Source of the DNA: an uncultured Planctomycetia bacterium
GTDB lineage: Bacteria; Omnitrophota; Gorgyraeia; 1-14-0-20-64-10
Direction of reading: 5' to 3'
Assembly: GCA_964597545.1 (NCBI GenBank)
Contig: CAZQXN010000011.1
Coordinates: 1-60,268, forward strand
Length of the DNA stretch: 60,268 nucleotides
The position numbers and the translations under genes were made by a program. The notes under the pieces were generated by a model. That model had not been told where the DNA came from. It searched no databases and saw nothing but the letters and a program-made list of their open reading frames with translations. Each line of letters starts with the position of its first letter. The first letter of the stretch is position 1. Shown piece by piece: positions 4,288 to 39,860 of this stretch.

Positions 4288-4406
4288 TGGTGGGCCGACA
4301 AGGAGCCGATCGCGCTGCGCGCTCTCGGCACTTCCTTCGCCGACCACGCCTTTGGCGCGGTGCCCGGCTCGGTCGCTCAACCCTTCGGGTTCTCGTCCTT
4401 GTCCGG
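4288..4406 (-). ncRNA. Candidate structured ncRNA, possibly small (4.5S-type) SRP RNA; the 3' end duplicates the tRNA-Lys 3' end plus CCA
   Basis: On the reverse strand the 5' CCG(G)ACAAGG pairs with the 3' CCUUGUCGG. The interior GGUCGGCGAAGGAAGUGCC resembles E. coli 4.5S helix-8 GGUCCGGAAGGAAGCAGCC. Total length is about 115-120 nt, with GC-rich helices GAGCCG/CGGCUC and GGCAC/GUGCC. The match to the SRP symmetric loop is imperfect (AGUG instead of AGCA, and one extra loop nucleotide). The only ORFs here are Arg-rich overlapping artefacts. Confidence 0.4.
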
Positions 4407-4426
4407 AATAGCGCATTGAGTTTAGA

Positions 4427-4498: not shown

Positions 4499-4568
4499 TT
4501 GGTGAGTATTCTAGCGGGTTTTACTGTTGGTTGCTATCTGTTGTTGCGGGTAGAGCAACGAAGGAATG

Positions 4569-21415: not shown

Positions 21416-21884
21416 AGGTCTTCTCTCCTCGCATCAGAATAACGGTTCGCTCCTGAATTTCTTTGACCTCTGCCTCGCCGACCTGCTCCCCTTCCCTCAC
21501 CCACATGGTCTGACCGGAGTCTGAATCTTCCAAAAAGGCCCGCTTGCCCCCGGCCATGATGACCCCCTTCAAAACCCAAACCCGTTCCCGCTCTACTGTT
21601 GCAGGGGCGACAGGAGCCGGGGGTAGCTCTGTCTTGAGGGGCTCAAAGAGTGTTTCTGGAAATTCCACTGTTGGCACCGCCGGCATCGGCTTTGAGATCG
21701 GCTCCAAATCCGGCAAGAGAGGTCGAATCGGCTGCTGCAACTGCACCCCCCACTGAACCAAATCCCCGGAAACCAATACCAGCAAGACCGGCAACAGCCA
21801 AATTAGAATCCGCTGGACCGTCAGCAGGCGCCGCTGTTCCCGATCTAGGCGCAGGAGAGACTCTGTCGACGCCGGAACGCTCAT
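21399..21884 (-). CDS. Single-pass inner-membrane protein, GspC HR-domain / PilP-like secretin-coupling component
   Basis: 161 aa. One TM helix (ILIWLLPVLLVLV), a Pro-rich spacer, then WVLKGVIMAGGKRAFLEDSDSGQTMWVREGEQVGEAEVKEIQERTVILM, which is typical of PilP/GspC beta-domains. Translationally coupled to its neighbours. Confidence 0.55.
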   Translation of the reverse strand: MSVPASTESLLRLDREQRRLLTVQRILIWLLPVLLVLVSGDLVQWGVQLQQPIRPLLPDLEPISKPMPAVPTVEFPETLFEPLKTELPPAPVAPATVERERVWVLKGVIMAGGKRAFLEDSDSGQTMWVREGEQVGEAEVKEIQERTVILMRGEKTFELQM

Positions 21885-22417
21885 TCCGAGAAAACCCCCT
21901 TGGCAACAGAGATCCGAACCACACCCTGGATCCTGTCCTCCTCTGCCGGGGTTAACCGCACGCTGTCCAGATGAACCCCTGGAACGGCCTCAGGCAGCCG
22001 CTGGAGAAACTGTCCGATGGCATTCAGTGGGCCCACCACCTTGGCATCCAGCCGAACCCGTTTTGAGCGGTTCCTGCGCCCTAGGGCCTCAAGGGGCTTA
22101 AGCTCATCGATCGAAAGGCCCGAAGCTTCAGCAACCTCCTGAACGCCCTGCAGGGTGACCCAGTTTAAATCAACGGAGCCTGAGCGCAGCGCACCCAGCA
22201 GCTCACCCCTTTTGGAGTTGACCTGCTCGCCAACCTCAATCCAACCGTGCAGCCGGGAGAGTTTCCCCTTCGCCAACTGAAGCTGTCCATCCTGCTGCTG
22301 CCAGAATTGGATGCCGGCCTCAGCCAGTCGAACACCGCCGACCACCAAGCCGAACCACAGGACCGCAATGCCAACGTTCAGCCAAGGGGACCTGCCCTGC
22401 GCAGCAGCACCCTGCAT
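21881..22417 (-). CDS. GspM / PilO-like inner-membrane assembly protein
   Basis: 178 aa. An N-terminal TM helix followed by coiled-coil and ferredoxin-like regions. Assigned by its position in the operon. Sequence evidence is weak. Confidence 0.5.
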   Translation of the reverse strand: MQGAAAQGRSPWLNVGIAVLWFGLVVGGVRLAEAGIQFWQQQDGQLQLAKGKLSRLHGWIEVGEQVNSKRGELLGALRSGSVDLNWVTLQGVQEVAEASGLSIDELKPLEALGRRNRSKRVRLDAKVVGPLNAIGQFLQRLPEAVPGVHLDSVRLTPAEEDRIQGVVRISVAKGVFSE

Positions 22418-23853
22418 CAGGGAGCGATACCGCTGGGCTGAAGCTGCAGCTCAAATTCCACGATTTCTCCCTCGTCCTTTTCCCTGGTTTTGGCGGAACG
22501 CAGGAAGACCCTGTCCCAAACCGCCTTTTCTCTGAGGGTAGCTGAAAATCGGGTCACATGACGCAAATCCGGCGCCAGACCCCGAAGGGTCAAGCCCTTG
22601 TTCGCTTCCAACCCAAAGAACTGCAGGGTCATCTCGGGCTCAAGGTAACGCACCGCCTCTGTCAAAAGGGACAACTCAAGAGCATAGGCTTGGCGGGCAG
22701 CGGCAAGGGCGCGGATAGAATCAAAGGACCACTGGATGCGGTTGACCCGGGGCGTAAGAGATTGAATCTGGTATTGCACCTGCTTGAGCTGCCACCCCGT
22801 CCCGCCAATCCGAGCGCCCGCCCAAACACAAGCCAAGGCTGCCCAAATCGCAACCAACAGAACAACCCTCCCAACTCGATGAGTAAGGGCTTGATGCTTT
22901 TGGTGGAGGCGGGTTTCAACCGGCAGCAGATCCAATTCCAGCAAGCGCGGTGCCGCCACCACACCCAAGAGCTCGGTAAAGGAGATCTCAGGGGCAAACT
23001 CTTTGACGGTGACGGCAAGGGATTCTCGGAAGGGGGAGTTCTCCAGGGGGTCCACTCGACGGACAGGCAGCTCCAGCAAATGCTCCAACTGTTCAACGGT
23101 TGCCCCCCTGCCCTCGAGCCAGCCGCTCACTGTGGCATGCGCCACCTGCGGTCCGATCCGTTCTCGATGATAGGCCTGGATGGTTTCTTGGAGTCGCCCG
23201 GCCATGTCGGTGACGCTGCCCGCAAGCCCAGACACATGGCGCATGTAAATGAGGGAACCTTGATCCAATACGCCAATATCCATTCCCTCGGAGGTCAGCT
23301 CTGCAAAAAGCCAAGCCCCGGCAGGCAGCTTCTCTCCTCCCGGGCTGCAGGCCTTGTGCCACTGGCCAATTGCTTCACTGGAAACAGCGATCTCGGTGAG
23401 GTCCAATCCGGCTTGAGCGCAAATCCGCACCAGCCGCTCGACAGTCGGCCGATGGGCGGCTGCCACCAAAACGCGAGTGGCCTCTCCTGCGGGTCCCACC
23501 ACCTTGACTGAAGTGACGCATTCATCCACCGGATAGGGCAGCACACCCTCCAGTTGATAGAAGGCCATCCCTTGAAGCTCATCCAGCTTGTCGGACGGAA
23601 GGGTGAGATAGCGCGTGAGAATCTCCCGCTTAGAAAGCAGGCCCACGACCTCCCGCGAGGATTCCGGAAGATCCCTTGCCAACTCCTTAAGGGCGGAGGC
23701 CAGCGCCACTTCGCTGGCATCCTTCACCTGGCGGGACTTCATCCCCAGCAGTTTAGGGATCCCTTTGCCGGTCCATCGGGCCTGAACCAACTGCACTTGG
23801 GTTTCTGTAACGCTGACCGCGGTCACAATCTGGGCCGTTTGACTACCCTTCAT
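22417..23853 (-). CDS. GspL-like protein (PilM-type actin-like cytoplasmic domain fused to a PilN-like TM/periplasmic domain)
   Basis: 478 aa. The N-terminal roughly 300 aa are cytoplasmic, followed by one TM helix (VVLLVAIWAALACVWAGA) and a periplasmic tail. It lies between gspK and the gspM-like gene. Confidence 0.6.
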   Translation of the reverse strand: MKGSQTAQIVTAVSVTETQVQLVQARWTGKGIPKLLGMKSRQVKDASEVALASALKELARDLPESSREVVGLLSKREILTRYLTLPSDKLDELQGMAFYQLEGVLPYPVDECVTSVKVVGPAGEATRVLVAAAHRPTVERLVRICAQAGLDLTEIAVSSEAIGQWHKACSPGGEKLPAGAWLFAELTSEGMDIGVLDQGSLIYMRHVSGLAGSVTDMAGRLQETIQAYHRERIGPQVAHATVSGWLEGRGATVEQLEHLLELPVRRVDPLENSPFRESLAVTVKEFAPEISFTELLGVVAAPRLLELDLLPVETRLHQKHQALTHRVGRVVLLVAIWAALACVWAGARIGGTGWQLKQVQYQIQSLTPRVNRIQWSFDSIRALAAARQAYALELSLLTEAVRYLEPEMTLQFFGLEANKGLTLRGLAPDLRHVTRFSATLREKAVWDRVFLRSAKTREKDEGEIVEFELQLQPSGIAP

Positions 23854-24718
23854 GCCATCCTCCTATGGTCGCTTGGGCTTGGGCCGACTCCCGGTTCAAT
23901 ACTGCCCTGACCCTTTGGCGAAGCGCGTGCCGCTTACTTACCCCCTCTGCCTCAATTTGAAACCAAGAAGAAGCCACTCCAATCACGCCGGATTGGATCT
24001 CGTCTGAGAGCACAGCTCTGTCCCCTGCAGGCAGTATAACTCCAGCTGCCTCCATATCGATCAGAATTGTGCCTGTTTCCTCAAATATCCTATCATCTTC
24101 GGTTCCCAAAACACCATCACTGCCTTTTCGATACGCCCCCACCAAATCCACCCCAGTTGCAGAGATCCCAAGCGCACTTAACACCTCAGGGTACACGGTA
24201 TTGAGATTCATGGGGCCCACTCCATGCACAGTCACCAGGGGCGCAAGCGTCTCTAAGTCATCGGCAGAAAGACCAAAAACCTTCAGTTCCGCCAAATGCG
24301 CAATCGGTTTTGGCGTATCGGGATCGGTGATCCGCGCGATGAGATCGGCTGCAATCTGCGCGTCAAAACCAGGCAATGCTTGAAGGAGATCGAGATTGGC
24401 TGCATTGAGCGGAATGTGGGCTTGAAGATCAGAGATCTCGTACTGGAAGGAACCTGAGGCCAAGGAGATGGGCTCCTCAGGGGTTTCCCGCCACCAGGGT
24501 TCAGCCGGAGCGTCAAAACCAGCGGCTGTATCCAAAAGCATGCGGGCAGCAGCCGCCTGGACCGCCGTGTGAGCCAAATGCCAAGCTTGGCGTGACTCTC
24601 GAAGCCGGCCCACCCATTTGACTTCCAAAGCAACACGGGTGGCCTGCGTGATGCCGAGAATGGTCAGTACCGCCGCGCCCCACAAGCTGAGGATCAGCAC
24701 AGAGCCCCTCTGCCGCAT
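23843..24718 (-). CDS. gspK: Minor pseudopilin GspK-like
   Basis: 291 aa. MRQRGSVLILSLWGAAVLTILG is the GspK-type N-terminus (no Glu+5). Helix-hairpin-helix-like repeats follow. Confidence 0.65.
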   Translation of the reverse strand: MRQRGSVLILSLWGAAVLTILGITQATRVALEVKWVGRLRESRQAWHLAHTAVQAAAARMLLDTAAGFDAPAEPWWRETPEEPISLASGSFQYEISDLQAHIPLNAANLDLLQALPGFDAQIAADLIARITDPDTPKPIAHLAELKVFGLSADDLETLAPLVTVHGVGPMNLNTVYPEVLSALGISATGVDLVGAYRKGSDGVLGTEDDRIFEETGTILIDMEAAGVILPAGDRAVLSDEIQSGVIGVASSWFQIEAEGVSKRHALRQRVRAVLNRESAQAQATIGGWHEG

Positions 24719-24719
24719 C

Positions 24720-25334
24720 TTACGCCTCCTCCGGCGGAATCAAAACACCGTGTGGAAGCCAGAAATCCCGCGTCACGTCATGCGCCCTTCCCTCGGCATC
24801 CTCGGCGGCAAGCCGCACTCGAAGGAACTTAGGTAACGCATCGTCCGGCTGCCATGTATCGAGATACAGCAGCTCGCCCGGTGCCTCGCCCTGATAGGCG
24901 TATGTCATAGAAAAACGGCTGACTCGACCTACCAGCCTTTGGGTCACCACCTCCTCCTCCTCTGTCTCAGGAAAAGCCAACCCTTCCCGAATGAGGACTG
25001 AATCTTCCCCCACACCCTGGAGCGCATAGCGCACCTGCCGCAGCCCAGTCGCCCCCTCGCTCTTTAAGAAAACCATCTGCCCGGCTTCGCCCACAAAGGG
25101 TGAATCGGCCAGGACGACGGCGTTGCGCAGCTCCTCTGCCATCCGGTTAAGTCCGCGCTCCACCACAAAAAAGATCTGGAGCCGCCCATCCGCCCGCTGC
25201 CAGGCAGTCAGCCCCCTCCCCAATACCAGCACCGCTGCAACGCCGATCACAACAGCCAGAGAGGTCGCGACAACCAATTCCAATAAGGTAAATCCCTTGC
25301 AGCCAGCTCCAAGGCGCCTCGGCCGCCGGGTCAT
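24720..25334 (-). CDS. Minor pseudopilin, GspJ-like (prepilin-type N-terminus)
   Basis: 204 aa. KGFTLLELVVATSLAVVIGV carries a prepilin cleavage/methylation motif. Confidence 0.65.
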   Translation of the reverse strand: MTRRPRRLGAGCKGFTLLELVVATSLAVVIGVAAVLVLGRGLTAWQRADGRLQIFFVVERGLNRMAEELRNAVVLADSPFVGEAGQMVFLKSEGATGLRQVRYALQGVGEDSVLIREGLAFPETEEEEVVTQRLVGRVSRFSMTYAYQGEAPGELLYLDTWQPDDALPKFLRVRLAAEDAEGRAHDVTRDFWLPHGVLIPPEEA

Positions 25335-25723
25335 TGCGTCCCCGCTTCCGGCGAAAGCCCCGTGGCAATCCGAACAGAACGTTCATGCCCCCGAAATCCC
25401 CAAAAAACCTGGGTGGTAATCTTTTGAAGGGTTTGCTCTGCCTCTATGGGCTCAGGCGCTGAAACCTCCCAGCGGAAGATCCCCTCTTGGCCTTCAGTTT
25501 CAACGGGGAGTTGCTGCGTATGGCGCGCGAGTGCCGCGATTGTCTCGCGATCTGCAAGGGCAGAGGCAGCTAAGGTATGGTCTAAGAGGCGTGTGACATT
25601 CAGATGGCGGCTGAAGACTGCAGCCCCTAGGATGAGGGCGGTTACGAGGATAGCGAATGCTACTAAAACTTCGATGAGGGTGAACCCGAGTGGGGCCCTG
25701 CGCCCCATCGGATTCAAAATCAT
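25331..25723 (-). CDS. Minor pseudopilin, GspI/GspH-like (prepilin-type N-terminus)
   Basis: 130 aa. LGFTLIEVLVAFAILV carries the prepilin motif. Confidence 0.65.
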   Translation of the reverse strand: MILNPMGRRAPLGFTLIEVLVAFAILVTALILGAAVFSRHLNVTRLLDHTLAASALADRETIAALARHTQQLPVETEGQEGIFRWEVSAPEPIEAEQTLQKITTQVFWGFRGHERSVRIATGLSPEAGTQ

Positions 25724-26169
25724 GGAGAGGCGCCCGAGCCCCCTTCCCAGTTGCCGATGTCGTCGCTGGTCCCCTCAGTACCATCGGGCCCAACCGAGAA
25801 GAGGTCGTAATCGCTTGGGTTCTGCGTTCCCGGAGTTTGATAATGATAAGGACGCTTCCAGGGATCTAGGGGGGTACTTTTAAGGTACGGACCCCGCCAG
25901 TTTTCTACATCCGCCGGGAGGGCTCGCAGGGCCTCCAACCCCTGCTCTTGGGTGGGGTAAGCGCCGGTATCTACCTCAAAGAGATCCAGCGCCAAGGGGA
26001 TATTGGCCTGCACATCTGCCGTGGCCCGAGCAATCCGAGCCTGCTGAGTCCGCCCGGCAAGCCGAGGGACCACCATCGCCACTAAGACGCCCAGGATGGT
26101 GACCACGATCAGAAGTTCTACCAGGGTAAATCCTCTTTCGTCATTGCGAGCGAAGCACAGCCATCCCAT
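25720..26169 (-). CDS. gspG: Major pseudopilin GspG
   Basis: 149 aa. ERGFTLVELLIVVTILGVLVAMVVPRLAG, then DLFEVDTGAYPTQEQGLEAL and GPYL...DPWKRPYHY, typical of GspG. Confidence 0.85.
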   Translation of the reverse strand: MGWLCFARNDERGFTLVELLIVVTILGVLVAMVVPRLAGRTQQARIARATADVQANIPLALDLFEVDTGAYPTQEQGLEALRALPADVENWRGPYLKSTPLDPWKRPYHYQTPGTQNPSDYDLFSVGPDGTEGTSDDIGNWEGGSGASP

Positions 26170-26177
26170 TCTGCGTA

Positions 26178-27389
26178 TTATCCTACATTAAAATTTAGTT
26201 GAAAGATAGGCAGTAGCATCGAGAAGACAATGCCGCCCACCACCAGGCCTACCAGCAGGATCATCACCGGTTCAATCAAGCTACTCATGGTTTTGACTGA
26301 TCGATCCACTCCCTGGTGGTACCGCTCTCCTGCTTGGGCAAAGGCCCGGGCCAAATCCCCCTGGGCCTCTCCCATGGCGACCATGGTCAGCAAGAAAGCC
26401 TCTCCAACTCCGCCTCGCCTTAAGCTCGCTGAGAGGGCCATCCCCTCCATCACATCCCGCTCACTGCGCTTCATCTGTGCCCTGAGCCGGCTTAAACCGA
26501 CTGTGGCGCCACTCAAGCGAAGGGCCTCCGGAAGGGGCAGCCCATGGGCCAGCAAAAGCCCGAGTGTCGAGGTGAGCCGAGCCATCTCCCCCTGTTCTGC
26601 CAAGCGGCCAAAGAGAGGAATATGGCGCAAGAGGTTCATTCCCCAGGCCCCAATCGGAATCTTCAGCCAGCCGGATCTTACTGCCAACCATCCGGCAATC
26701 AGCAGCAGCAATCCCAGGCCCGCCGCCCACACCAACCCCTGGCCGGATTGAATCATCATATTCGTCATCCAGGGCAAGGGCTGGCCGGTCTCTTCAAAGA
26801 GAAGCCCAAGCTTGGGTACAACAAACCAAATGAGCGCACTGACGGTAGCCAGCCCCACCAACATGACAAAGGCCGGATAAACCAAAGCCCCGCGCACTTT
26901 GGAGACAAGCTCGGACTCAGCCTCTACCTGCCGGGTCAGGGCCTCTAAGACCTGCTCCAACGCCCCGCCGGCCTCTCCGGCCTGAATCAAGGCCACAGCG
27001 ACTGGCGGGAAGGAAGCGCTTACCTGCGTCATCCGCATGGCATCTGCCAGATTGGCCCCACCGGTAACTTGGGCCTCCAGAAAGGCGGCCACCCGCCCCA
27101 CAGGACGTCCGGATTCCTGCTCTGCCAACAGGTGCAGTGCCTGGGTCAGGCTTAAACCGGCCTGCAAACCCTGACCAATGGTGCGGGCCCACAAGGCAAG
27201 ATCGGCTTGGCCGAGCGCTCGACGCCCAAGTGCCCCGGCGGGTGCCCCCTTTTGCTCCAAGGGAACAACCTCCAAGGGAAACAAACCCATTTGCTTAAGG
27301 TGCTGAACAGCAGCAGTCCGATCCATCGCCTCCACAACCCCTGAGGCGTCGGTTCGCTTATCCTGCTTGGCTCGGTAGGTAAATTGCAT
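26178..27389 (-). CDS. gspF: T2SS inner-membrane platform protein GspF
   Basis: 403 aa. Duplicated T2SSF-type domains and three TM segments. Sits between gspE and gspG. Confidence 0.88.
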   Translation of the reverse strand: MQFTYRAKQDKRTDASGVVEAMDRTAAVQHLKQMGLFPLEVVPLEQKGAPAGALGRRALGQADLALWARTIGQGLQAGLSLTQALHLLAEQESGRPVGRVAAFLEAQVTGGANLADAMRMTQVSASFPPVAVALIQAGEAGGALEQVLEALTRQVEAESELVSKVRGALVYPAFVMLVGLATVSALIWFVVPKLGLLFEETGQPLPWMTNMMIQSGQGLVWAAGLGLLLLIAGWLAVRSGWLKIPIGAWGMNLLRHIPLFGRLAEQGEMARLTSTLGLLLAHGLPLPEALRLSGATVGLSRLRAQMKRSERDVMEGMALSASLRRGGVGEAFLLTMVAMGEAQGDLARAFAQAGERYHQGVDRSVKTMSSLIEPVMILLVGLVVGGIVFSMLLPIFQLNFNVG

Positions 27390-27392
27390 ACG

Positions 27393-27429
27393 GGGTCAGA
27401 CCCCTTTGGGTCAAAAGGGGTCTGACCCC
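27393..27429. repeat. Two copies of the GGGGTCWGACCCC palindrome (gspE-gspF intergenic)
   Basis: ggggtcagacccc (27393-27405) and ggggtctgacccc (27417-27429). Confidence 0.9.
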
Positions 27430-27438
27430 TTTGAGGGG

Positions 27439-29076
27439 TTATTCATTTTCAAGCTCCGTGACGCGAAGGACCTCTTCCTCGGTGGTAAGACCCATCTCGA
27501 CCTTTTTCATGCCGTCTTCCCGGAGGGTCCTCATCCCCTTGGACCGGGCAAGCTTGACAATCTCCCCTGCAGGCGCCCGATCGGTAATGAGCTTTCGGAT
27601 GTCATCGTCCAAAATAAGGAACTCTGAGATCGCGGTCCGCCCTTTGTAGCCGGTCTTGCGGCACTCTTGACATCCCTTGCCCCGGCATGCTGTACAGGTG
27701 AGCCGAACCAACCGCTGGGCAATGGCGCACTCCAGGGAGGAGGCCACCAGGTAGGGCTCAATCCCCATGTCCAACAAGCGCGTCATGCAGCCGGCTGCAT
27801 CGTTGGTGTGCAGGGTTGAGAAAACCAGGTGACCGGTCAGTGCCGTACGGATCGCAGTCTCAGCGGTCTCAAAATCCCGAACCTCACCCACCATAATGAC
27901 GTCGGGATCATGCCGGAGAATGGATCTGAGCGCCGAGGCAAAGGTAAAGCCGATCTTGGGGTGCACCTGCATTTGCGTGATGCCGGAGATCAAATATTCA
28001 ATGGGGTCTTCAATGGTGATCATCTTGCGCTTGCGGTCGTTGATGTGGGAAAGGCACGCATACAGAGTGGTGGTCTTGCCGGATCCGGTAGGCCCGCTCA
28101 CAAAGATGATGCCATGGGGCTTGGTGACCAAACGCTCCAAGATCTTGCGGTGGTCTTCAAACAACCCCAACTGCTCTAACCCCAAGAAGATGTTGGTGCT
28201 TAAGATCCGGATCATCGCCGCTTCGCCAAAGGGAGTAGGTAAAACCGAGATTCTTAAATCCAGCTCGCGGCCCGCCACCTTGACCTTGGCTCGACCATCC
28301 TGGGGCAGCCGGTGCTCAGCCACATTGAGCCGCGCCATCACCTTGATCCTGGAAACAATCCCCGGATGAAACCGCCTGATGCCGTCGGGAACCGGGATAT
28401 CGTACATCACCCCGTCGATCCGAACGCGAATCATCAGGGTCTTCTCATAGGGCTCCAAGTGAATGTCGGTGGCGCTGTCCCGAATGGCCTCTAAAAAGAG
28501 CTGGTTGACAAACTTGATGGTGGAGGCCTCTCCCCCGATCTTGTCCAGATCAGAGACCGCCTCCGAGAGGGTTGTGGCGGTGGCAGAGAGTTCCTCTGTC
28601 GCCACCATTGCTTCAACCGTCTCGGCCCCGACACCGTAATGCTGACGAATGGCCTCTGAGAGCTCGTGAGAGCTCACTGCCGCCGGCTGGATCTCGGCAT
28701 GGGTCAACATGCGAAGCTCATCCACCACACTGGTATTTAAGGGGTCCTCCATGGCAACGATCAGGGTTTTGCCTTGGCGGGCCACCGGAAGGACATGGTA
28801 GCGAGTGACAATCCGGGCTGGAACCTGCTTAATGAGCTCTGGATCAACGGGGCGCTGCTTGAGGGAGACAAAGGAGATGTTGAGCTGTTCGGCTAAAACC
28901 GGCAAGAGTTTCTCTTCCGAAGCCACCCCCATTCGGGCCAAGGTTTGGCAGATGGGGGGCACACCCTTGTTCTTCTTCTGGCGCTCCAGGGCATCCTCCA
29001 GCTGCTTCTCGGTGATCACCCCGGCCTCGATCAAGAGCTTGCCGATCTTCTTGTTGTGCCGCTTTAAAACCATCAT
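27439..29076 (-). CDS. gspE: T2SS/T4P assembly ATPase GspE
   Basis: 545 aa. N-terminal T2SSE_N-type domain, Walker [14 protein letters not shown], Asp and His boxes, and a tetracysteine motif CTACRGKGCQECRKTGYKGR. Confidence 0.92.
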   Translation of the reverse strand: MMVLKRHNKKIGKLLIEAGVITEKQLEDALERQKKNKGVPPICQTLARMGVASEEKLLPVLAEQLNISFVSLKQRPVDPELIKQVPARIVTRYHVLPVARQGKTLIVAMEDPLNTSVVDELRMLTHAEIQPAAVSSHELSEAIRQHYGVGAETVEAMVATEELSATATTLSEAVSDLDKIGGEASTIKFVNQLFLEAIRDSATDIHLEPYEKTLMIRVRIDGVMYDIPVPDGIRRFHPGIVSRIKVMARLNVAEHRLPQDGRAKVKVAGRELDLRISVLPTPFGEAAMIRILSTNIFLGLEQLGLFEDHRKILERLVTKPHGIIFVSGPTGSGKTTTLYACLSHINDRKRKMITIEDPIEYLISGITQMQVHPKIGFTFASALRSILRHDPDVIMVGEVRDFETAETAIRTALTGHLVFSTLHTNDAAGCMTRLLDMGIEPYLVASSLECAIAQRLVRLTCTACRGKGCQECRKTGYKGRTAISEFLILDDDIRKLITDRAPAGEIVKLARSKGMRTLREDGMKKVEMGLTTEEEVLRVTELENE

Positions 29077-29198: not shown

Positions 29199-32100
29199 TC
29201 ACCGCACCCGGATCTTGAAGCGCCGCTTGGGGGAAACGCCCCCTTTGGAATCGATCGCTTCCACAGACCCACTATAGAGCCCTCGTCTTGGGTAGCGGTA
29301 CCAGAAGTAGCAACGGGTCTTTGTCCTCTTCCTGCCGTCCCCAAAATCAAAGCGATAGCGGATCCGATCTCTATCGGGGTCGGTGGCCCAAACGTAGAAC
29401 AAGGCCCAGCGCCCCCACCAAGACCCACACCAGAAGTACCGGATGACCGGAGGGTCGTTGGCAGGGAGAACCCGGACGCTTCTGGTCTCTTCGGTCTTGC
29501 GGGTAAAGCCGTAGACCGATTCGGTCACGGTGAGCTTGACCGGGTAGGTTCCCGGAGAGGCATAGGCGTGGCGGGCAATCCGCCTGGTGGAGGTGATGCC
29601 GTCGCCGAAGTTCCACAGATAAGTGATCGGATCATCCTCGTCATCATAAGCAGATACCGCAAATACGCCCTCCTCCCCTTCGGCTACCTGCGCGGGCGTG
29701 CGGACCGAAGCGATCTGGGCCTGGTTGTTGAGGGCCCCGATAACCGTCAGAACATCCAAAGTAGTCAAGAACCTGTCACCGTTGACATCATAGTACGGAG
29801 GCGGTCCGAATTCGTTGGTAACACGCGGCAGTTTCCCTCCGGGTGGCAGGCGCCCGCCCAAAGAGGAGTTTACCGCGCTCACTAAGATGAGCACATCCAA
29901 GGTGGTCAGCATGCCGTTTCCGTTGATATCGAGAGGATTGTCCGGGTTCTGCCAGGGATGAGGGTTCTCGTAGATGACGAGGGTCTGATCTGCGCTGACA
30001 TCGCTGCGCGTTGTTGTGCCGCCGCTCGGCCAGTGGACAACAACGCTATCAGCCGTCAGATGGTTGCCGAGTCCGAAATGCATCGGGCTTTCCTCAAGAT
30101 CATCGCTGTTGCGCATCGTTTTGGCCTGCTCCAGGCCTTCAGCGGCAACAATGACTCGAGCCCCCAAACCGAAGCTATTGCTTGCATGTCCATCAAGTTG
30201 AATTTTCAGCCAGTGGTTTTTCGGATCTCCGAATATGTCGGAATAACGATTCTCATACAAGCTAAGATACCCCTCCATCTGGTGAGCGTTCAGGATGTCC
30301 AGATCACCGTCGTTATCATAGTCGGCGTAGGCGACAAAACTGCCGAAGTTGCTTCCGTAAGCTCCCGACTCAAATGTCCGGTCAGTAAAGGAAACCCCCT
30401 GCTCATTATGCAGGAGATAATTCCCCCCGACTCCTCCAGTCAAGTAGAGATCCAGAAACCCGTCGTTGTCGTAATCTAGAAATTGCGCTCCCTGGGGTCC
30501 GATCACCCCTAAACCCCCCATCTCAGAAAACATCCGGTCTGTATAATCCCAAAAGGACCCGTCACCACAGTTCTGGTAAAGGCGCGTAATGCGTTTAATC
30601 CGTTCAAAACCTTCGTACTTATATACCCATATACCCGCAAGGAAAAAATCTGGAAATCCATCGTTGTTATAATCCCCTACGGCAATTGCGCTAGGCCTAT
30701 TCATTTTAATTCCAAAGCAGACCTTTCGGAAACCTCCATCCCCCTGGTTCATATAAAATTGCAACCCATTCACCCCCGCGGGCGCCCAGGCACCAATGAT
30801 TAAATCCATAAAGCCATCCACATTGAAATCAATCACTTGAGTGTTGGCATAGGCATAACCCATTGCGCCCGAAAGACCAGCTCGGCTCGTTACGTCCTCG
30901 AAGCGATTGTTCCCCAAATTCCGCATCAGCGTAACAGGCGGAGCGGGCAACAGAATGTCCACATACCCATCGTTGTCATAGTCAAAAAACACTGGGGTTA
31001 GGGGACACTGTTCAAAAACCGGCAATCCCGACGATGCCGTGATGTCGGCGAAGCCCCCGCCGCCGCTGTTCCTTAAAAGGCGGGGTCTATCTTCATCAGA
31101 CGGAATGACCAAAAGATCGAGATCTCCGTCATTATCAATGTCCGCAGCCTTGCTCTGCCAAAACGGTCTGGGAAAAACAGATGTCGCTTCAAACTTCCCT
31201 GCCGCCGGGTTAAACAGGTAGCGATGCTCCGGGCTGGCGATCAGGTCAGCATACCCATCCTGATTGACGTCGGCAAAGGTGACACCCCAACTGCCGGAAT
31301 AGATGCTGTAGAGAAATGTGATGCCTTTCTCCTCCGCGACATCCTGAAAGAAAGTGGGTTGCAGACGAATAGCGCCCTCTGAGCGCAGAATCGTCTCGCC
31401 CTGAGAATCTGTCGCCCTCAGCGTGAATCTGATCTCGTCAGAGAATGCCGCACCGCTGTTTAATCGAATACGAAATGGATCGGATGCGTTCTCGGCGGTT
31501 TCACCGGAAGCGATTTCACCAAGCAGCCACTCGCCCTCCTCCACGGCAACTTCCGGATGCGTAGCTTCCAGGAAAACTTGAACGCCGTCAGCATCCTCAA
31601 AGATGCTGTGCAGGCGCACAATCAGTTCGAATGTCTCTCCCGGGAGCACCTCTCCCTTGAATCTGTACTCCTCCAGGACAAGCAGGGGCTGGCTCTCGAC
31701 CGCAAGGGCGCGCTCTATATTGAGCCGCCCGGCTCCCATGAACCCTGCGCAGTCGCCCAAAAGCGAATCGATCGAATCCGCTCCCAAGCGCAGGCGGGCA
31801 TGAATTTCATCCGGGGAGGCGCTGGGATACTGGCTCAAAAGGATGGCAGCGGCCCCAGCCACGTGAGGGCCGGCCATGGAGGTACCGGCCAAACGAGCGT
31901 AGCCGGGGGCGACAATAAGATCTTCCCGTTTAGCAATGATTTCCAAACTGCTTGGAATTGCAGAGAGGATGTTACGGATGTCGCGCCCACGGCCACTCCC
32001 GGGAGCCGAGACATCAACCGCCAGTCCAAAACTGGAGAAAAAAGAGCGCTGATCGTCCTGAGCGGTTGAACCAACCGTAATAACCGTTTCCAAGCTCGCA

Positions 32101-33470
32101 GGCACCGCTACCGAGATCGAAACGTCATCGTTACCGGCAGACGCCACAGAGGTCATCCCAAGCCCGTGGGCATACACGAAGGCATCCTGCAAGGTCCGGC
32201 TGACATCTACAATACCCCATGAGTTGTTGGAAACGCCGGCACCGTTCTCTGCCGCATACGCAATAGCAATGACGAGATCTGAGACCATCGCGGCAACAAA
32301 CTCTTGAACGGTTCCCTCAACAATACCTTCATCGCTGAACACCTTCAGCGGCATGATCTCGGCCCCCGGCGCCACGCCAACCACGCCAAGACCGTTGTTT
32401 CCCGTCGCCGCGATCGTGCCGGCCACATGGGTCCCATGGCCGATCTCCTCGTCCATCGGGTCATTATCATCAGCCCAGAAATTCCAACCCCGCACATCAT
32501 CAACGTAACCGTTGCCGTCGTTATCAACGCCGTCGCCGGGAATTTCCCCTGGATTGGTCCAGATGTTGGCTTCTAAATCTTCGTGCATGTAATCAACCCC
32601 AGTGTCAATAACTGCTACCGTGACACCCTCTCCTTGCGCCGTCTGCCAAGCCTCGGGAGCGCTCACCTTCAAAATTCCCCAAAGGTCCTCGTATTCCTGC
32701 CCCCAAGCCCCTTCGGTCCAGCTCCCGTCAGGGGCCGCATAGGTATCGTTGGGTGGTGTCTCCGGAAAGGCGTGCAATCGAGCGAGAAAGTCGGGCTCAG
32801 CGTACTCCACAGCCGGATCAGCGTTATAGCGGGCGATCATGGGGGTCAAGTCTTCTGACTCTTCAACCTGAATAACATAAACCTGATCCAAATTGGAAAA
32901 CGCCCCTTCGCCCTGCTCCTGAAGACGCTCTACCCGGCTCACCAGCTTCTCTTGAATCTCTACCTGGCGGTCCAAGAGCGCCTTCTCTCTGGCAACCCTG
33001 GCCTCATAATCCTTAGACTCTTCGGAATCCTTATCCTTCCACCAGTACCAACGGCCATGGGATTGTCCGCTCACCAGCTCCGCTCGCATACGGCGAAGAA
33101 CATTAAGTCGCCCTGAAAGAGAGAGACGTTCGGGCAGCAATCGATTGACCGCGGTTGCCCCAAACTGCGTATTGAGCTTCGATAAACTCGAGAGAGACTG
33201 CCCTTCTTTGAGTTTGACGATGATCCGGCCAGGGACAAAACGAGGCCTATCGTGAACCGCAACTGTCGCCTGCTCGTTGTTCGCCCCATCATCAGAGCGG
33301 AGAGGGTCCAGCGGTAGAATCCAAGGCACTCGCCTGTCTGTCTGGCCACCGGCATCAGAAGTATTCTGGTTTTCCTCTGAAGCGGCCAATAGTGCCGTTG
33401 GGGTTTGCAAAAGCGTAATAGAAATAGCCAAAATAATAGCTGCGGCTCTATGGATTGTTCTACTTCTCAT
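29199..33470 (-). CDS. 1423-aa secreted multidomain subtilisin (S8): propeptide, S8 catalytic domain, FG-GAP/VCBS repeats, two dockerin-like repeats, a PKD domain and a conserved C-terminal module
   Basis: Signal peptide MRSRTIHRAAAIILAISITLLQTPTALLAA. Catalytic triad contexts AVIDTGVDYMHEDL, GHGTHVAGTIAA and GTSMAGPHVAGAAAIL. Repeated DxNxDGxxD motifs (DVNQDGYADL, DIDNDGDLDL, DYDNDGYVDI). DINGNGMLTTLDVLILV and DVNGDRFLTTLDVLTVI are dockerin-like. WNFGDG...HAYASPGTYPVKLTV is PKD-like. Confidence 0.88.
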   Translation of the reverse strand: MRSRTIHRAAAIILAISITLLQTPTALLAASEENQNTSDAGGQTDRRVPWILPLDPLRSDDGANNEQATVAVHDRPRFVPGRIIVKLKEGQSLSSLSKLNTQFGATAVNRLLPERLSLSGRLNVLRRMRAELVSGQSHGRWYWWKDKDSEESKDYEARVAREKALLDRQVEIQEKLVSRVERLQEQGEGAFSNLDQVYVIQVEESEDLTPMIARYNADPAVEYAEPDFLARLHAFPETPPNDTYAAPDGSWTEGAWGQEYEDLWGILKVSAPEAWQTAQGEGVTVAVIDTGVDYMHEDLEANIWTNPGEIPGDGVDNDGNGYVDDVRGWNFWADDNDPMDEEIGHGTHVAGTIAATGNNGLGVVGVAPGAEIMPLKVFSDEGIVEGTVQEFVAAMVSDLVIAIAYAAENGAGVSNNSWGIVDVSRTLQDAFVYAHGLGMTSVASAGNDDVSISVAVPASLETVITVGSTAQDDQRSFFSSFGLAVDVSAPGSGRGRDIRNILSAIPSSLEIIAKREDLIVAPGYARLAGTSMAGPHVAGAAAILLSQYPSASPDEIHARLRLGADSIDSLLGDCAGFMGAGRLNIERALAVESQPLLVLEEYRFKGEVLPGETFELIVRLHSIFEDADGVQVFLEATHPEVAVEEGEWLLGEIASGETAENASDPFRIRLNSGAAFSDEIRFTLRATDSQGETILRSEGAIRLQPTFFQDVAEEKGITFLYSIYSGSWGVTFADVNQDGYADLIASPEHRYLFNPAAGKFEATSVFPRPFWQSKAADIDNDGDLDLLVIPSDEDRPRLLRNSGGGGFADITASSGLPVFEQCPLTPVFFDYDNDGYVDILLPAPPVTLMRNLGNNRFEDVTSRAGLSGAMGYAYANTQVIDFNVDGFMDLIIGAWAPAGVNGLQFYMNQGDGGFRKVCFGIKMNRPSAIAVGDYNNDGFPDFFLAGIWVYKYEGFERIKRITRLYQNCGDGSFWDYTDRMFSEMGGLGVIGPQGAQFLDYDNDGFLDLYLTGGVGGNYLLHNEQGVSFTDRTFESGAYGSNFGSFVAYADYDNDGDLDILNAHQMEGYLSLYENRYSDIFGDPKNHWLKIQLDGHASNSFGLGARVIVAAEGLEQAKTMRNSDDLEESPMHFGLGNHLTADSVVVHWPSGGTTTRSDVSADQTLVIYENPHPWQNPDNPLDINGNGMLTTLDVLILVSAVNSSLGGRLPPGGKLPRVTNEFGPPPYYDVNGDRFLTTLDVLTVIGALNNQAQIASVRTPAQVAEGEEGVFAVSAYDDEDDPITYLWNFGDGITSTRRIARHAYASPGTYPVKLTVTESVYGFTRKTEETRSVRVLPANDPPVIRYFWCGSWWGRWALFYVWATDPDRDRIRYRFDFGDGRKRTKTRCYFWYRYPRRGLYSGSVEAIDSKGGVSPKRRFKIRVR

Positions 33471-33511
33471 CTCATTGTCTCCCTAGAGGTTAAGCTTAAG
33501 CTCCTGGACCG

Positions 33512-33550
33512 AAAATAAAAAACCCATGGTTTTTTCCGCAAAACCATGGG
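33512..33550 (-). terminator. Intrinsic terminator inside the 5' leader of the 1423-aa S8 gene (riboswitch expression platform)
   Basis: Reverse strand CCCAUGGUUUU-GCGG-AAAAACCAUGGG followed by UUUUUUAUUUU. It lies about 40 nt upstream of the start codon and downstream of the aptamer. Confidence 0.75.
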
Positions 33551-33573
33551 CTTCCTGCATTCTTGTCTGATCT

Positions 33574-33645
33574 GGCAACCCGGCTGGCCCTATGGGCCCC
33601 GTGGCTTTGCGGCCCCCGGTTTCCCGGGGTGTGCCTTTTACAGGT
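33574..33645 (-). promoter_or_regulatory. c-di-GMP-I (GEMM-I) riboswitch aptamer, leader of the 1423-aa S8 gene
   Basis: Reverse strand AAAAGGCACACC-CCGG-GAAA-CCGG-GGGCCGCAAAGCC-ACGGGGCCCAUAGGGCC-AGCCGGGUUGCC. Compare V. cholerae Vc2: GGGCAAACC-AUUC-GAAA-GAGU-GGGACGCAAAGCC-UCCGG...GCGGGGUUACC. Confidence 0.75.
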
Positions 33646-33665
33646 ATATCAATTGCTACACACTA

Positions 33666-33695
33666 AGTATGGCTGATCCTCATCAAAAAAGTCAA
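33666..33695 (-). promoter_or_regulatory. Candidate sigma70 promoter of the 1423-aa S8 gene
   Basis: Reverse strand TTGACT (33695-33690), 18 nt, CATACT (33671-33666). It lies about 20 nt upstream of the aptamer. Confidence 0.45.
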
Positions 33696-33735
33696 GGGGA
33701 CCGTAACTTTTTTGGGTTCCGGTAGTTAGGATCAC

Positions 33736-36700
33736 TCATCGCCACGCCCGGATCTTGAAGCGCCGCTTGGGGGAGCGGTTCCCCTTGGAGTCAACGGCTT
33801 CGAGAAAACCGCTGTAGACGCCCCGCTTTGGATACCGGTGCCAGGTCCCGTGCTGGGCAGTGCTTCGGCTTGTACCGTCTCCGAAGTCAATGTGATATCG
33901 GACAGAATCGCCATCCGGATCGATCGCCCGGAATCGAAAGAGCGCCCAGCGGCCAAAGCTGCGCACCCGGAAATGTTTGATCTCCGGAGGTCGATTTAGG
34001 GTAGGGCGGCGGAAGACGGTTACACGCGCTTTTTGTGAAGCGGAATACTCACCATCGCTCACTGAAAAAGTTACGGTGTGCTCCCCAATATCTCCTCTTC
34101 CGGGTTTGAGAATCACCAAAGCACGCCCTTCCCCAAAATCACGCAAGCGCATGAAACGGGGTAGATCTACTGCCGAGAAGGTCAGGGGGTCGCCATCCGG
34201 GTCGGAGGCCGAGATCACCTGGAAGTAGACCTGCCCTACCTGAATCTCTCGATTTGCAATGGGATTTAAGACCGGGGGGCGGTTAACAGGGTTGGTAACG
34301 GTAATGGCGAGCTTCTTTCGGTCGGCCAGACCGGCATCATCGAAGGCGTAGAAGAGAACTGTGTATTCTCCGGCCTGTCCAGGGTCTGGGGTCCAGGAGA
34401 AGCGTCCGGTTGGGCGATCAAAAGAAGCGCCCTCCGGAAGATCTCCTGCCCACAGATAGACGGGGTCTCCATCCGGGTCGGTGGCGGTGACGGTAAACTC
34501 CAGGGGTTCTCCCTCTTTGACCTCCTTGTCGCCGATGGGGTCTAAGACCGGGGGGCGGTTGACGTTCACCACGGTGATGTTGATGGTTTCTGAGTCGGAG
34601 AGGGGAGGAGTGATGCCACGAGGTGGCATGATGATGTCGTCGGGGGTACGGGGTGGAACAAGACCCGGGTTCGGCAGAGGCATGGGGTCCGGCACAGGGA
34701 TGGGGATTAAGTTAATTTCGGTGGCGGTAAATGTGACTCTGTAGAGGCCAGCTTGTGTGAAGTCGGGGGTCCAGGAGAAGAGGCCGGTTCTGGAAAAGGT
34801 GGCTCCGGCAGGAAGACCTTTTGCCCCCAGGAAGATGAGGCTGTCTGGATCGCTGGCTGTAACAGTGAAAGAGAGACGCTCTCCCTCCTTGACCTCCTTG
34901 TCGCCGATGGGATCTAAGACCGGGGGGCGGTTGACGTTATGGACGGTGATGTTGATGGTTTCTGAGGTGGAGAGGGGAGGGGTGATATCGCGAGGGGGCG
35001 CGTCGATTACCTCAGGGATGTCAGCCAGAATGGTGCCAGGACTCGGCAGAGGAGGAAAGGGATCCGGTACAGGGAGAAAAATCAGGCCGAGCTCGTTGGC
35101 AGTAAAGGTGACTTCGTAGGCGTCGGCCTGGGAGAAGTCCGGGGTCCAGTAGAAGCGGCCGCGGACGCCCATATATCCTTTATGCACGTCATAGACAGGA
35201 GTCCAATCGAAGGTAGCTCCTTCAGGAAGCTCCATGTTAATAAATTCGAGAAGGTCTCCATCCGGGTCGGTGGCGGTGACGGTAAACTCCAGGGGTTCTC
35301 CCTCCTTGACCTCCTTGTCGCCGATGGGATCTAAGACCGGGGGGCGGTTGACGTTATGGACGGTGATGTTGATGGTTTCTGAGGTGGAGAGGGGAGGGGT
35401 GATATCGTGAGAGGGAATGATGATGGATTCCCGCTCAAGGGGAAGCGGACCCGGCAAGGGGAATTCGGGGTCGATGGGATCAATGGGGAACAGGCCAAAT
35501 TCGGTGGCGTGGAAGGTGACTTTGTAGGCGTCGGCTTGGGTGAAGTCCGGGGTCCAGGAGAAGCGTCCGGTGGGGCGATCGAAAGAAGCGCCCTCCGGAA
35601 GATTTCCTGCCCGAAAGAAGATGGGGTCTTGATCCGGATCGGTGGCGGTGACGGTGAATTCCAGGGGCTCTCCTTCTTTAACCTCCTTGTCGCCGATGGG
35701 GTCTAAGACCGGGGGGCGGTTGACGTTATGGACGGTGATGGTGATGGTTTCTGAGTCGGGGAGGGGAAGAATGATAATGATAGGTTCCCGCTCGGGGGGA
35801 ATCGGACCCGGCAAGGGGAATTCGGGGTCGATGGGATCGATCGGGCTAAGATCGCTGGCGAAGAAGGTGACTTCGTAGGCGTCGGCTTGGGTGAAGTCGG
35901 GGGTCCAAGAGAAGAGGCCGGTTGGACGATCGAAAGAAGCGCCCTCCGGAAGATCTCCTATCCACAGATAGATGGGGTCTTGATCCGGATCACTGGCGGT
36001 GACGGTAAACTCCAGGGGTTCGCCCTCTTTGATCTCCTTGTCGCCGATGGGGTCAAGGATGGGGCGGCGGTTGACGTTGTGGACGGTGATGTTGATGGTT
36101 TCTGAGTTGACCAACTCGCCATCTGTTACTTCAAAATGGACACCATCGTAAAACCCTGATTGTTCATAGGTCGGTATCCAAGTGAAAGCGCGCGTATTCG
36201 GATCGAAATTGGCCCCTTCAGGCAGATTGCCGGCCGAGAAAATCAATTCATCCCCGTCAAGGTCTATAGCAGTCACCGTGAAAGCAAGGCTCTCTCCCTC
36301 GGGGACCGTCTTGTCGCCAATTGGACCCAACACCGGCCGTCTATTGGCAGGAACAGAGGGCGGAGCAAAAGCGTAGAAACCGGTCCGCTGGGGATCGTGG
36401 CGGAACATCGGCCACTCCATGCTGTCTTCTCTGTAGCTCTTTGGAAATTCCAGGACGCTGACATGTGTCACTCCCCATTCAGCGTTAAAGTGAGAGGTAT
36501 ATCGGAGGGTGACAAGATCCACCAACCCGTTGCCATCCAAGTCGGTAATGACCGTCTGACCTCCTTCGGGACCAACGATCTCCCTGGGTAACTTGATTGG
36601 GAATCCTTCTACAAGCGTTCCATCATGATGCCAGGCCTGCAGAAACGCCATGCCTCTATCCTCGGGGGGGATGTAGCTCTGGTTAGGCGCCGAAGACCCC

Positions 36701-39750: not shown

Positions 39751-39788
39751 GAAATAAAAAATGCCCGGCTGCCCTTTGGCAGCCCGGC
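39751..39788 (-). terminator. Intrinsic terminator inside the 5' leader of the 1988-aa S8 gene; its 5' arm overlaps the aptamer 3' strand
   Basis: Reverse strand GCCGGGCUGCC-AAAG-GGCAGCCGGGC (one internal mismatch or bulge) followed by AUUUUUUAUUUC. Confidence 0.75.
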
Positions 39789-39860
39789 GGTCTCTAAGAT
39801 CACTGGATCCGTGGCGTTGCGTCCCGCCCTTGCAGGCGGTTTGCCTTTATCGGGGTACCG
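39778..39860 (-). promoter_or_regulatory. c-di-GMP-I (GEMM-I) riboswitch aptamer, leader of the 1988-aa S8 gene
   Basis: Reverse strand AUAAAGGCAAACC-GCCU-GCAA-GGGC-GGGACGCAACGCC-ACGGAUCC...GCCGGGCUGCC. The GGCAAACC / GNRA-capped hairpin / GGGACGCAA-GCC core matches the Vc2-type consensus almost position for position. Confidence 0.8.

Follow-up and report, generated by a model that had tools for sequence, protein, structure and literature searches.

The gene of a 1423-aa S8 subtilase on the minus strand of the window (the whole stretch of 60,268 nucleotides analyzed here) is probably controlled by a class I c-di-GMP riboswitch through transcription termination, and this riboswitch is most likely an OFF switch. 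It is very probable that the aptamer acts through the terminator at 33550-33512. OFF is the logic that we favor on balance, exerted via a helix between the segments 33612-33596 and 33551-33536; ligand binding, switching, and its direction are all inferred.

When the minus strand is read from 33700 to 33468, a promoter-like site, the aptamer, a linker, the terminator, a Shine-Dalgarno (SD) sequence, and the ATG start codon follow each other in this order; we refer to this region as the 33.6-kb leader. The sigma-70-like promoter consists of TTGACT (33695-33690) and CATACT (33671-33666), separated by an 18-nt spacer; it was detected by a motif scan, and its blocks are common to other leaders. The scan returned one promoter-like site where 0.7 were expected in shuffled sequences, which is weak evidence when taken alone. 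Transcription is predicted to start at about 33659, ~15 nt 5' of the aptamer, and a linker of ~20 nt, as read directly from the DNA, connects the aptamer with the terminator stem. The SD-like GGGAGA (33483-33478) is positioned 7 nt ahead of the ATG at 33470, and this start codon lies 100 nt further downstream of the aptamer and on the same strand. The promoter, the SD sequence with its ATG, and the S8 gene had all been proposed in an initial annotation of this DNA, and each of them was found on the minus strand at the positions given. To our knowledge, promoter and terminator rules are untried in this candidate phylum. A two-codon mini-ORF (AUG AGA UGA; 33466-33474, minus strand) overlaps the real start at 33470, and the SD spacing favors the second AUG. 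Just past the stop codon of the upstream 1988-aa gene lies a hairpin (AAAAAAGUUACGG-UCC-CCUUGACUUUUUU; 33684-33714, minus strand) with an A-tract on one side and a U-tract on the other; it overlaps this leader's -35 box and probably serves as a weak terminator for the 1988-aa gene.

The regulated gene extends from 29199 to 33470 on the minus strand, as defined by the list of open reading frames and a domain search. Its product matches Peptidase_S8 with an E-value of 1.7e-52. A signal-peptide-like N-terminus, which suggests that this subtilase is secreted, is followed by a fervidolysin-type prodomain and the S8 domain, and FG-GAP, UnbV_ASPIC, dockerin, and PKD domains are present as well.

A search of the whole 60-kb window with the Rfam covariance models revealed a c-di-GMP-I (GEMM-I) aptamer of 75 nt at 33644-33570 on the minus strand (67.7 bits, E = 7e-14). 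The match is full length (model positions 1-80), and no other Rfam family came near the GEMM-I clan score in the aptamer region. The covariance-model check that the initial annotation had named was thereby passed within clan CL00126. All 22 listed pairs of the three-way junction formed by P1, P1a, and P1b are G-C, A-U, or G-U pairs; in the model alignment, the outermost P1 pair is the only non-standard one. According to the pair list, P1 has 3 bp in the Rfam register (33643-33641 with 33574-33572), P1a is a hairpin (33629-33614) with a GAAA loop (33623-33620), and P1b (33606-33577) is short with ~30 nt. In minimum-energy folds, UGCAGG (33553-33558, minus strand) may act as the distal 3' strand of a longer P1; it would pair with CCUGUA (33644-33639), a 6-bp alternative to the 3-bp proximal P1 whose role is uncertain.

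Class I aptamers contact their ligand through G20, A47, and C92 in the numbering of the Vc2 riboswitch (PMC4744006; PMC11218506). In our own alignment of the model consensus to Vc2, the anchors were the conserved GAC bulge, in which the C represents C44, and the AGC ahead of the P1b 3' strand; G20, A47, and C92 then fall on model columns 10, 37, and 67. The equivalent nucleotides in the window are G (33635), A (33608), and C (33583), and the presence of these three nucleotides argues for a canonical c-di-GMP-I pocket. The equivalent of C44 is the C at 33611; its G83 partner was not placed with confidence in the shortened P1b, and no receptor motif for the GAAA loop was recognized in this ~30-nt helix. 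Both the GAAA tetraloop and the Vc2-like core described in the initial annotation were thus recovered, the latter with all three contacts in canonical form. Hence, the segment 33644-33570 is almost certainly a genuine class I c-di-GMP aptamer, for which ligand binding is predicted. It is an ordinary representative of a well-studied riboswitch class and not a new kind of element.

The intrinsic terminator (33550-33512, minus strand) is composed of the 5' arm CCCAUGGUUUU (33550-33540), the loop GCGGAA (33539-33534), and the 3' arm AAAACCAUGGG (33533-33523), which form a core stem of 11 bp, followed by the tail UUUUUUAUUUU (33522-33512), in which ten of the 11 nucleotides are U. When a weak A/G-U extension is included, the terminator scan counts 17 pairs, five of them G-C, and the hairpin has a folding energy of -22.9 kcal/mol (z = -4.6); none of 200 shuffled sequences was as stable. 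The initial annotation had described a strong terminator that is separate from the aptamer, and both hairpin and U-tract are indeed present and clear of the aptamer. Two of its details had to be corrected: six rather than five A's follow GCGG, so that the loop reads GCGGAA, and the spacing between aptamer and terminator stem, given there as ~25 nt, measures 19-23 nt.

The switching helix was not obvious to the initial annotation, which had left the direction of the switch open; we found a candidate for it in the form of a 15-pair antiterminator that predicts OFF. In a duplex search, we paired the aptamer with the 5' arm plus loop of the terminator and kept the pairing of best energy. This search yielded a duplex of -27.8 kcal/mol between the aptamer-side strand CCGCAAAGCCACGGGGC (33612-33596) and the expression-platform strand GCCCAUGGUUUUGCGG (33551-33536), the latter comprising the terminator 5' arm and the loop bases GCGG. 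Eleven consecutive pairs, one of them G-U, connect 33612-33602 (CCGCAAAGCCA) with 33546-33536 (UGGUUUUGCGG), and four further pairs, between 33599-33596 and 33551-33548, follow after a small internal loop. Of 5000 shuffled arms none attained this energy, and of 5000 shuffled aptamers one did; among all 21-mers of the window, which has a GC content of 57%, it was reached by 1.3%, a figure in which the aptamer's own antisense is counted in.

The antiterminator takes in the entire terminator 5' arm along with four of the six bases in the loop. These four, GCGG, are without function in the terminator hairpin, and yet each of them pairs with CCGC of the aptamer. On the aptamer side, the helix involves the equivalents of C44 and A47 as well as both basal pairs of P1a and the P1b 5' strand. 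To judge from the base sequence, this aptamer segment would in effect mimic the 3' arm of the terminator. With the loop bases matched and the ligand pocket covered, the pairing looks designed, and in the model it excludes both the bound aptamer and the terminator, as is needed for an OFF switch of the Cd1 type. Covariation gave no support for the antiterminator, as our searches returned no orthologous leader.

To simulate co-transcriptional folding, we computed the minimum-energy fold of the transcript at increasing lengths, counted from 33660. Up to a length of 121 nt, the minimum-energy fold is the aptamer; between 124 and 133 nt, when 5' arm and loop have been made and the 3' arm is absent, it is the antiterminator; from 136 nt onward, it is the aptamer together with the terminator. 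In the 124-133 nt interval, the antiterminator (-50.5 kcal/mol) is followed by the best aptamer-like fold (-46.4 kcal/mol) and by the aptamer in the Rfam register (-41.3 kcal/mol). A bonus of ~10 kcal/mol on the junction-closing pairs, introduced as a stand-in for the ligand and the tertiary contacts, holds the aptamer closed over this interval; this value is within the reported binding energies for class I c-di-GMP aptamers. When linker and arm were shuffled, 7.3% of the sequences destabilized the aptamer equally and 36% disrupted its core in the minimum-energy fold. Since this thermodynamic comparison is only weakly significant, the case rests on the specific complementarity of the duplex. 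Once the 3' arm has been made, the terminator is always part of the minimum-energy fold, and the switch would therefore have to act kinetically; the 5' arm has no free toehold within the antiterminator, so that its displacement by the 3' arm should be slow.

We propose the following course of events. Without c-di-GMP, the junction nucleotides CC...AAA (33612-33606) would be free in the aptamer, and the nascent UUUUGCGG (33543-33536) would nucleate on these free bases. The helix would then spread into the 5' strand of P1b to give the 15-pair antiterminator, which would occupy the whole 5' arm of the terminator, permit read-through of the U-tract, and allow the protease mRNA to be made. With c-di-GMP bound, the equivalents of A47 and C44 would be held by the ligand and by tertiary contacts, and the aptamer would stay closed; the 5' arm would then pair with the 3' arm, and transcription would stop at 33522-33512. 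The prediction of an OFF switch follows from this scheme, as c-di-GMP would lock the aptamer and thereby enable the terminator to form. An ON reading was considered as the leading model and rejected, since the terminator stem overlaps no part of the closed aptamer.

Several observations count against the OFF helix. Both homologous leaders have the ON-type layout, and P1 has only its 3 bp in the Rfam register. Moreover, the GC-rich and local P1a and P1b may fold fast and resist invasion by the nascent strand, which would result in constitutive termination. One may thus envisage that the aptamer is a working sensor and that the helix has no control over the hairpin at 33550-33512, which would act as an attenuator, whether constitutive or leaky, with regulation achieved otherwise, e.g., through Rho, RNA stability, translation, or an ON switch operating via an undetected pairing. 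The physical separation of terminator and aptamer, the possibility that the GC-rich P1a and P1b outcompete strand invasion, the weak outcome of the linker and arm shuffle, and the ON-type layout of the homologous leaders would all agree with this. There is also a precedent in the class I riboswitch Bc1 of B. thuringiensis, whose strong terminators seemingly lock it in the OFF state at any c-di-GMP level (PMC11218506). We nevertheless consider an uncoupled attenuator unlikely, because the 15-pair complementarity to the 5' arm and loop far exceeds what is expected by chance in composition-matched sequences. With respect to the other modes of control, no pairing ties the closed aptamer to the terminator stem as an ON switch would need, the distal P1 strand (33558-33553) merely abutting the stem, and the SD sequence is ~90 nt away from the aptamer.

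The family label of the aptamer requires comment with respect to the ligand. The best-scoring family at 33644-33570 is RF03167 (c-di-GMP-I-GGC), with 67.7 bits against a gathering score of 59. Like RF01051, the model named in the initial annotation, RF03167 is a member of clan CL00126. The expected GEMM-I match was therefore obtained at the level of the clan, but the top family is RF03167, and even so the aptamer is without the G that defines this family. Rfam output gives the top clan member per site, and two overlapping lower-ranked matches at gathering level were suppressed, which is consistent with RF01051 passing at both aptamer sites of the window as well. On the basis of the model consensus, we take 'GGC' to denote the nucleotides at Vc2 positions 20, 47, and 92; Weinberg et al. 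reportedly defined these variants, including the GGC type, in 2017. The RF03167 consensus has G, G, and C at columns 10, 37, and 67, whereas the aptamer studied here has G, A, and C, and A instead of G is found at column 37 in both window aptamers (33570-33644 and 39774-39854). As a control, we applied the same tool to 15 metagenomic loci (within L003-L019) and obtained ten aptamers labeled RF03167, all ten of which carry the A47 equivalent. The label thus reflects competition within the clan rather than the binding site and is uninformative about the pocket; taken at face value it was rejected, as the defining G at the A47 position is absent.

An aptamer of altered specificity, either of the RF03167 'GGC' type or a GEMM-Ib variant sensing c-AMP-GMP, is consequently very improbable. 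The top rank of RF03167 at both window aptamers and the unusually short P1b with no obvious receptor for the GAAA loop might suggest it, but column 37 is A where the consensus has G, position 92 is C, and the ten labeled metagenomic aptamers with A trace the label to clan competition. Position 20 is G (33635) and not the A that is usual in c-AMP-GMP variants (PMC9481103). The practical lesson is that automatic RF03167 labels provide no evidence of altered ligand specificity, as canonical A47 aptamers are often so labeled.

The window contains a second aptamer at 39854-39774 (59.2 bits in the Rfam search of the whole window), also labeled RF03167 and with A at column 37. It precedes the upstream 1988-aa S8 gene, whose product and the 1423-aa protein are 38% identical across 627 residues and have a C-terminal PKD region in common, suggesting that the 1423-aa gene and its leader arose by duplication. 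The two leaders align over the -35 box, a -10-proximal block, the aptamer, and the U-tract, and the 33.6-kb leader has ~35 nt extra relative to the 39.8-kb leader. In the 39.8-kb leader, the terminator 5' arm is the aptamer's own 3' strand, GCCGGGCUGCC; since the arm lies within the aptamer, the ligand should block termination, and an ON switch is predicted. The initial annotation had noted that the terminator overlaps the aptamer in the paralogous leader and not in the 33.6-kb one, and had surmised that the two paralogs may respond differently; both layouts are as described, and the ON-type arrangement on one side and the predicted OFF logic on the other lend weight to the surmise.

We examined six distant S8 homologs and found a GEMM-I leader in one of them, from Candidatus Omnitrophica (GCA_016198905.1; locus L021). 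Its aptamer (76.6 bits) lies ~100 nt upstream of the S8 gene, and its terminator 5' arm, AGCCGGGUUGCC, is the 3' strand of the aptamer, which corresponds to an ON-type layout. The L021 and 33.6-kb leaders have the blocks CTTGAC, GATCAGsCAyACTTA, and CAATTGAT in common (33660-33695 in the window; 539-585 in L021); CTTGAC and the -10-proximal blocks are also present in the 39.8-kb leader. These promoter-proximal blocks have been kept although the S8 genes are only ~41% identical. Around its -10 region, L021 also possesses an inverted repeat, GATCA...TGATC, that may be a transcription-factor operator. Between 595 and 740 of the same locus, the 3' half of the aptamer occurs twice, as CGCCGGGTTACCGAAG (656-671) and AGCCGGGTTGCCGAAG (691-706). 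The segments TCTTCAAC and GTTGAAGA could pair and thereby lengthen P1b so that it uses the second copy, whose sequence doubles as the 5' arm of the terminator at 691-724; two alternative closures of the aptamer would result.

Since the 39.8-kb and L021 leaders both have the ON-type layout, the 33.6-kb leader is the exception among the three homologs, and this fits a rewiring after duplication. We therefore tentatively consider, as a possibility somewhat short of an even chance, that an ON-type leader was duplicated and rewired, with the platform of the 33.6-kb copy replaced, its response inverted, and the two subtilases placed under reciprocal control. The ancestral ON platform, in which the terminator 5' arm is the aptamer 3' strand, would have survived in the 39.8-kb leader and in L021. 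In the 33.6-kb leader, ~35-40 nt of a stand-alone terminator would have been put in, with a 5' arm and a loop that imitate the complement of the ligand-binding junction. A single signal would thereby have come to govern both of the tandem giant subtilases, which are encoded beside a secretion system whose ATPase is itself c-di-GMP-binding. Were the opposite logic true, replacement of a short expression platform would suffice to flip a riboswitch from ON to OFF, and the toehold of the antiterminator would be the ligand pocket itself. A further reading, in which the duplicated leader is in decay and has lost its regulatory function, could appeal to this same duplication and to the want of an orthologue at hand to show purifying selection, but it deserves very little credence given a match to the full model, nearly all pairs standard, key nucleotides intact, and a terminator and matched antiterminator both intact, which is unlikely under decay.

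Directly downstream of the 1423-aa gene, a type II secretion/type IV pilus cluster (19358-29076, minus strand) encodes a secretin, a PilM-like protein, a GspF homolog, and a GspE/PilB-like ATPase with an MshE-type c-di-GMP-binding N-terminal domain. As this ATPase is encoded beside the riboswitch gene, c-di-GMP sensing at the protein level and at the RNA level adjoin each other. The window also carries genes for BamA, LpxB, LpxD, LpxI, and an LpxC-FabZ fusion, which indicate a Gram-negative host, probably from the Omnitrophota; its ClpX is 98% identical to a JGI protein and ~76% identical to Candidatus Omnitrophica proteins. Elsewhere on the minus strand, we noted a DnaB replicative helicase with an intein insertion (48812-51400, 862 aa) and a 1503-aa ORF (4569-9080) with two HemK-like methyltransferase domains and a response-regulator receiver domain. 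A pronounced local GC skew of +0.25 (plus strand) at 34001-36000 lies inside the C-terminal Ig/cadherin-repeat part of the 1988-aa gene.

Wider searches for relatives of the system were largely negative. Among 5.8 billion proteins, no relative of the N-terminal region of the S8 protein exceeded ~46% identity, and neither the S8 protein nor the GspE-like ATPase nor the response regulator gave a hit when looked up by exact match. A genome scan for an orthologous leader returned two distant loci with no riboswitch at either, and viral contigs contained no GEMM-I match. We scanned metagenomes for the 3' half of GEMM-I followed by GGYTTTGYG and obtained 18 loci, most of them of the ON type and the rest heterogeneous; in the ON-type matches, GGYTTTGYG is the end of the terminator 3' arm plus the U-tract. 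As the scan has no denominator, it was set aside as support for the OFF design. Some of the metagenomic loci harbor more than one aptamer. In L012, a class II c-di-GMP aptamer (4338-4420, 64.4 bits) is followed ~80 nt on and on the same strand by a class I aptamer (4499-4593, 42.6 bits), and no mixed-class tandem for the same ligand was found in the accessible part of a survey of tandem riboswitches (PMC9481103). Two same-strand class I aptamers are ~65 nt apart in L009 (4268-4512) and ~460 nt apart in L018 (1673-2343); such class I doublets are a known arrangement.

With these data, a lineage that has received little study, probably the Omnitrophota, gains a clean pair of class I c-di-GMP riboswitches, and c-di-GMP is linked to giant secreted subtilases beside a secretion/pilus system with a c-di-GMP-binding ATPase. 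What the data contribute beyond this is the predicted antiterminator with its OFF logic, the opposite layouts of the duplicated leaders, and the warning about the RF03167 label.

The closest mechanistic counterpart of the 33.6-kb leader is Cd1 (Cdi-1-3), a class I transcriptional OFF switch upstream of flgB in Clostridioides difficile; when no ligand is bound, one of its aptamer strands pairs with the 5' strand of the terminator to form a transient antiterminator (PMC9262584). In both leaders, a class I aptamer is followed by a separate intrinsic terminator. The partner in Cd1 is the aptamer-stabilizing strand 'A' (PMC9262584), whereas here a central segment would take this part, running from the 3' end of P1a through the junction, with its A47 equivalent, into the P1b 5' strand. 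Further differences are a much shorter linker (~20 nt), a Gram-negative host from a candidate phylum, and an S8 protease as the target. The pilM riboswitch of Geobacter metallireducens has a homologous GEMM-I aptamer for which control by termination has been shown, a mode of control that the arrangement of hairpin and U-tract predicts for the 39.8-kb and L021 leaders. Its terminator 5' arm is the aptamer 3' strand, making it an ON switch (PMC9262584); the 33.6-kb leader has a stand-alone hairpin instead. Furthermore, pilM carries A at position 20 and senses c-AMP-GMP, whereas the 33.6-kb aptamer carries G.

With Vc2 from Vibrio cholerae, the aptamer has in common the three-helix junction, the GAAA tetraloop on P1a, and the nucleotides G20, A47, and C92. 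P1b of Vc2 is long and carries a tetraloop receptor, whereas P1b is short here. Vc2 is classed as a translational riboswitch (PMC9262584), in contrast to the terminator platform of the 33.6-kb leader. The overall fold of RF03167, including the short P1b, is the same as that of the 33.6-kb aptamer, which is however devoid of the defining G of that family at the A47 position. With respect to the regulated function, the nearest parallel is Cdi-1-12 of C. difficile, a class I switch that represses the secreted protease ZmpI, while adhesins are switched ON by c-di-GMP (PMC6200980). The 33.6-kb leader likewise is a predicted class I OFF switch on a secreted protease, but ZmpI is a small zinc metalloprotease and the ON switches of that system belong to class II, whereas in the window both switches are of class I and both of their targets are giant subtilases.
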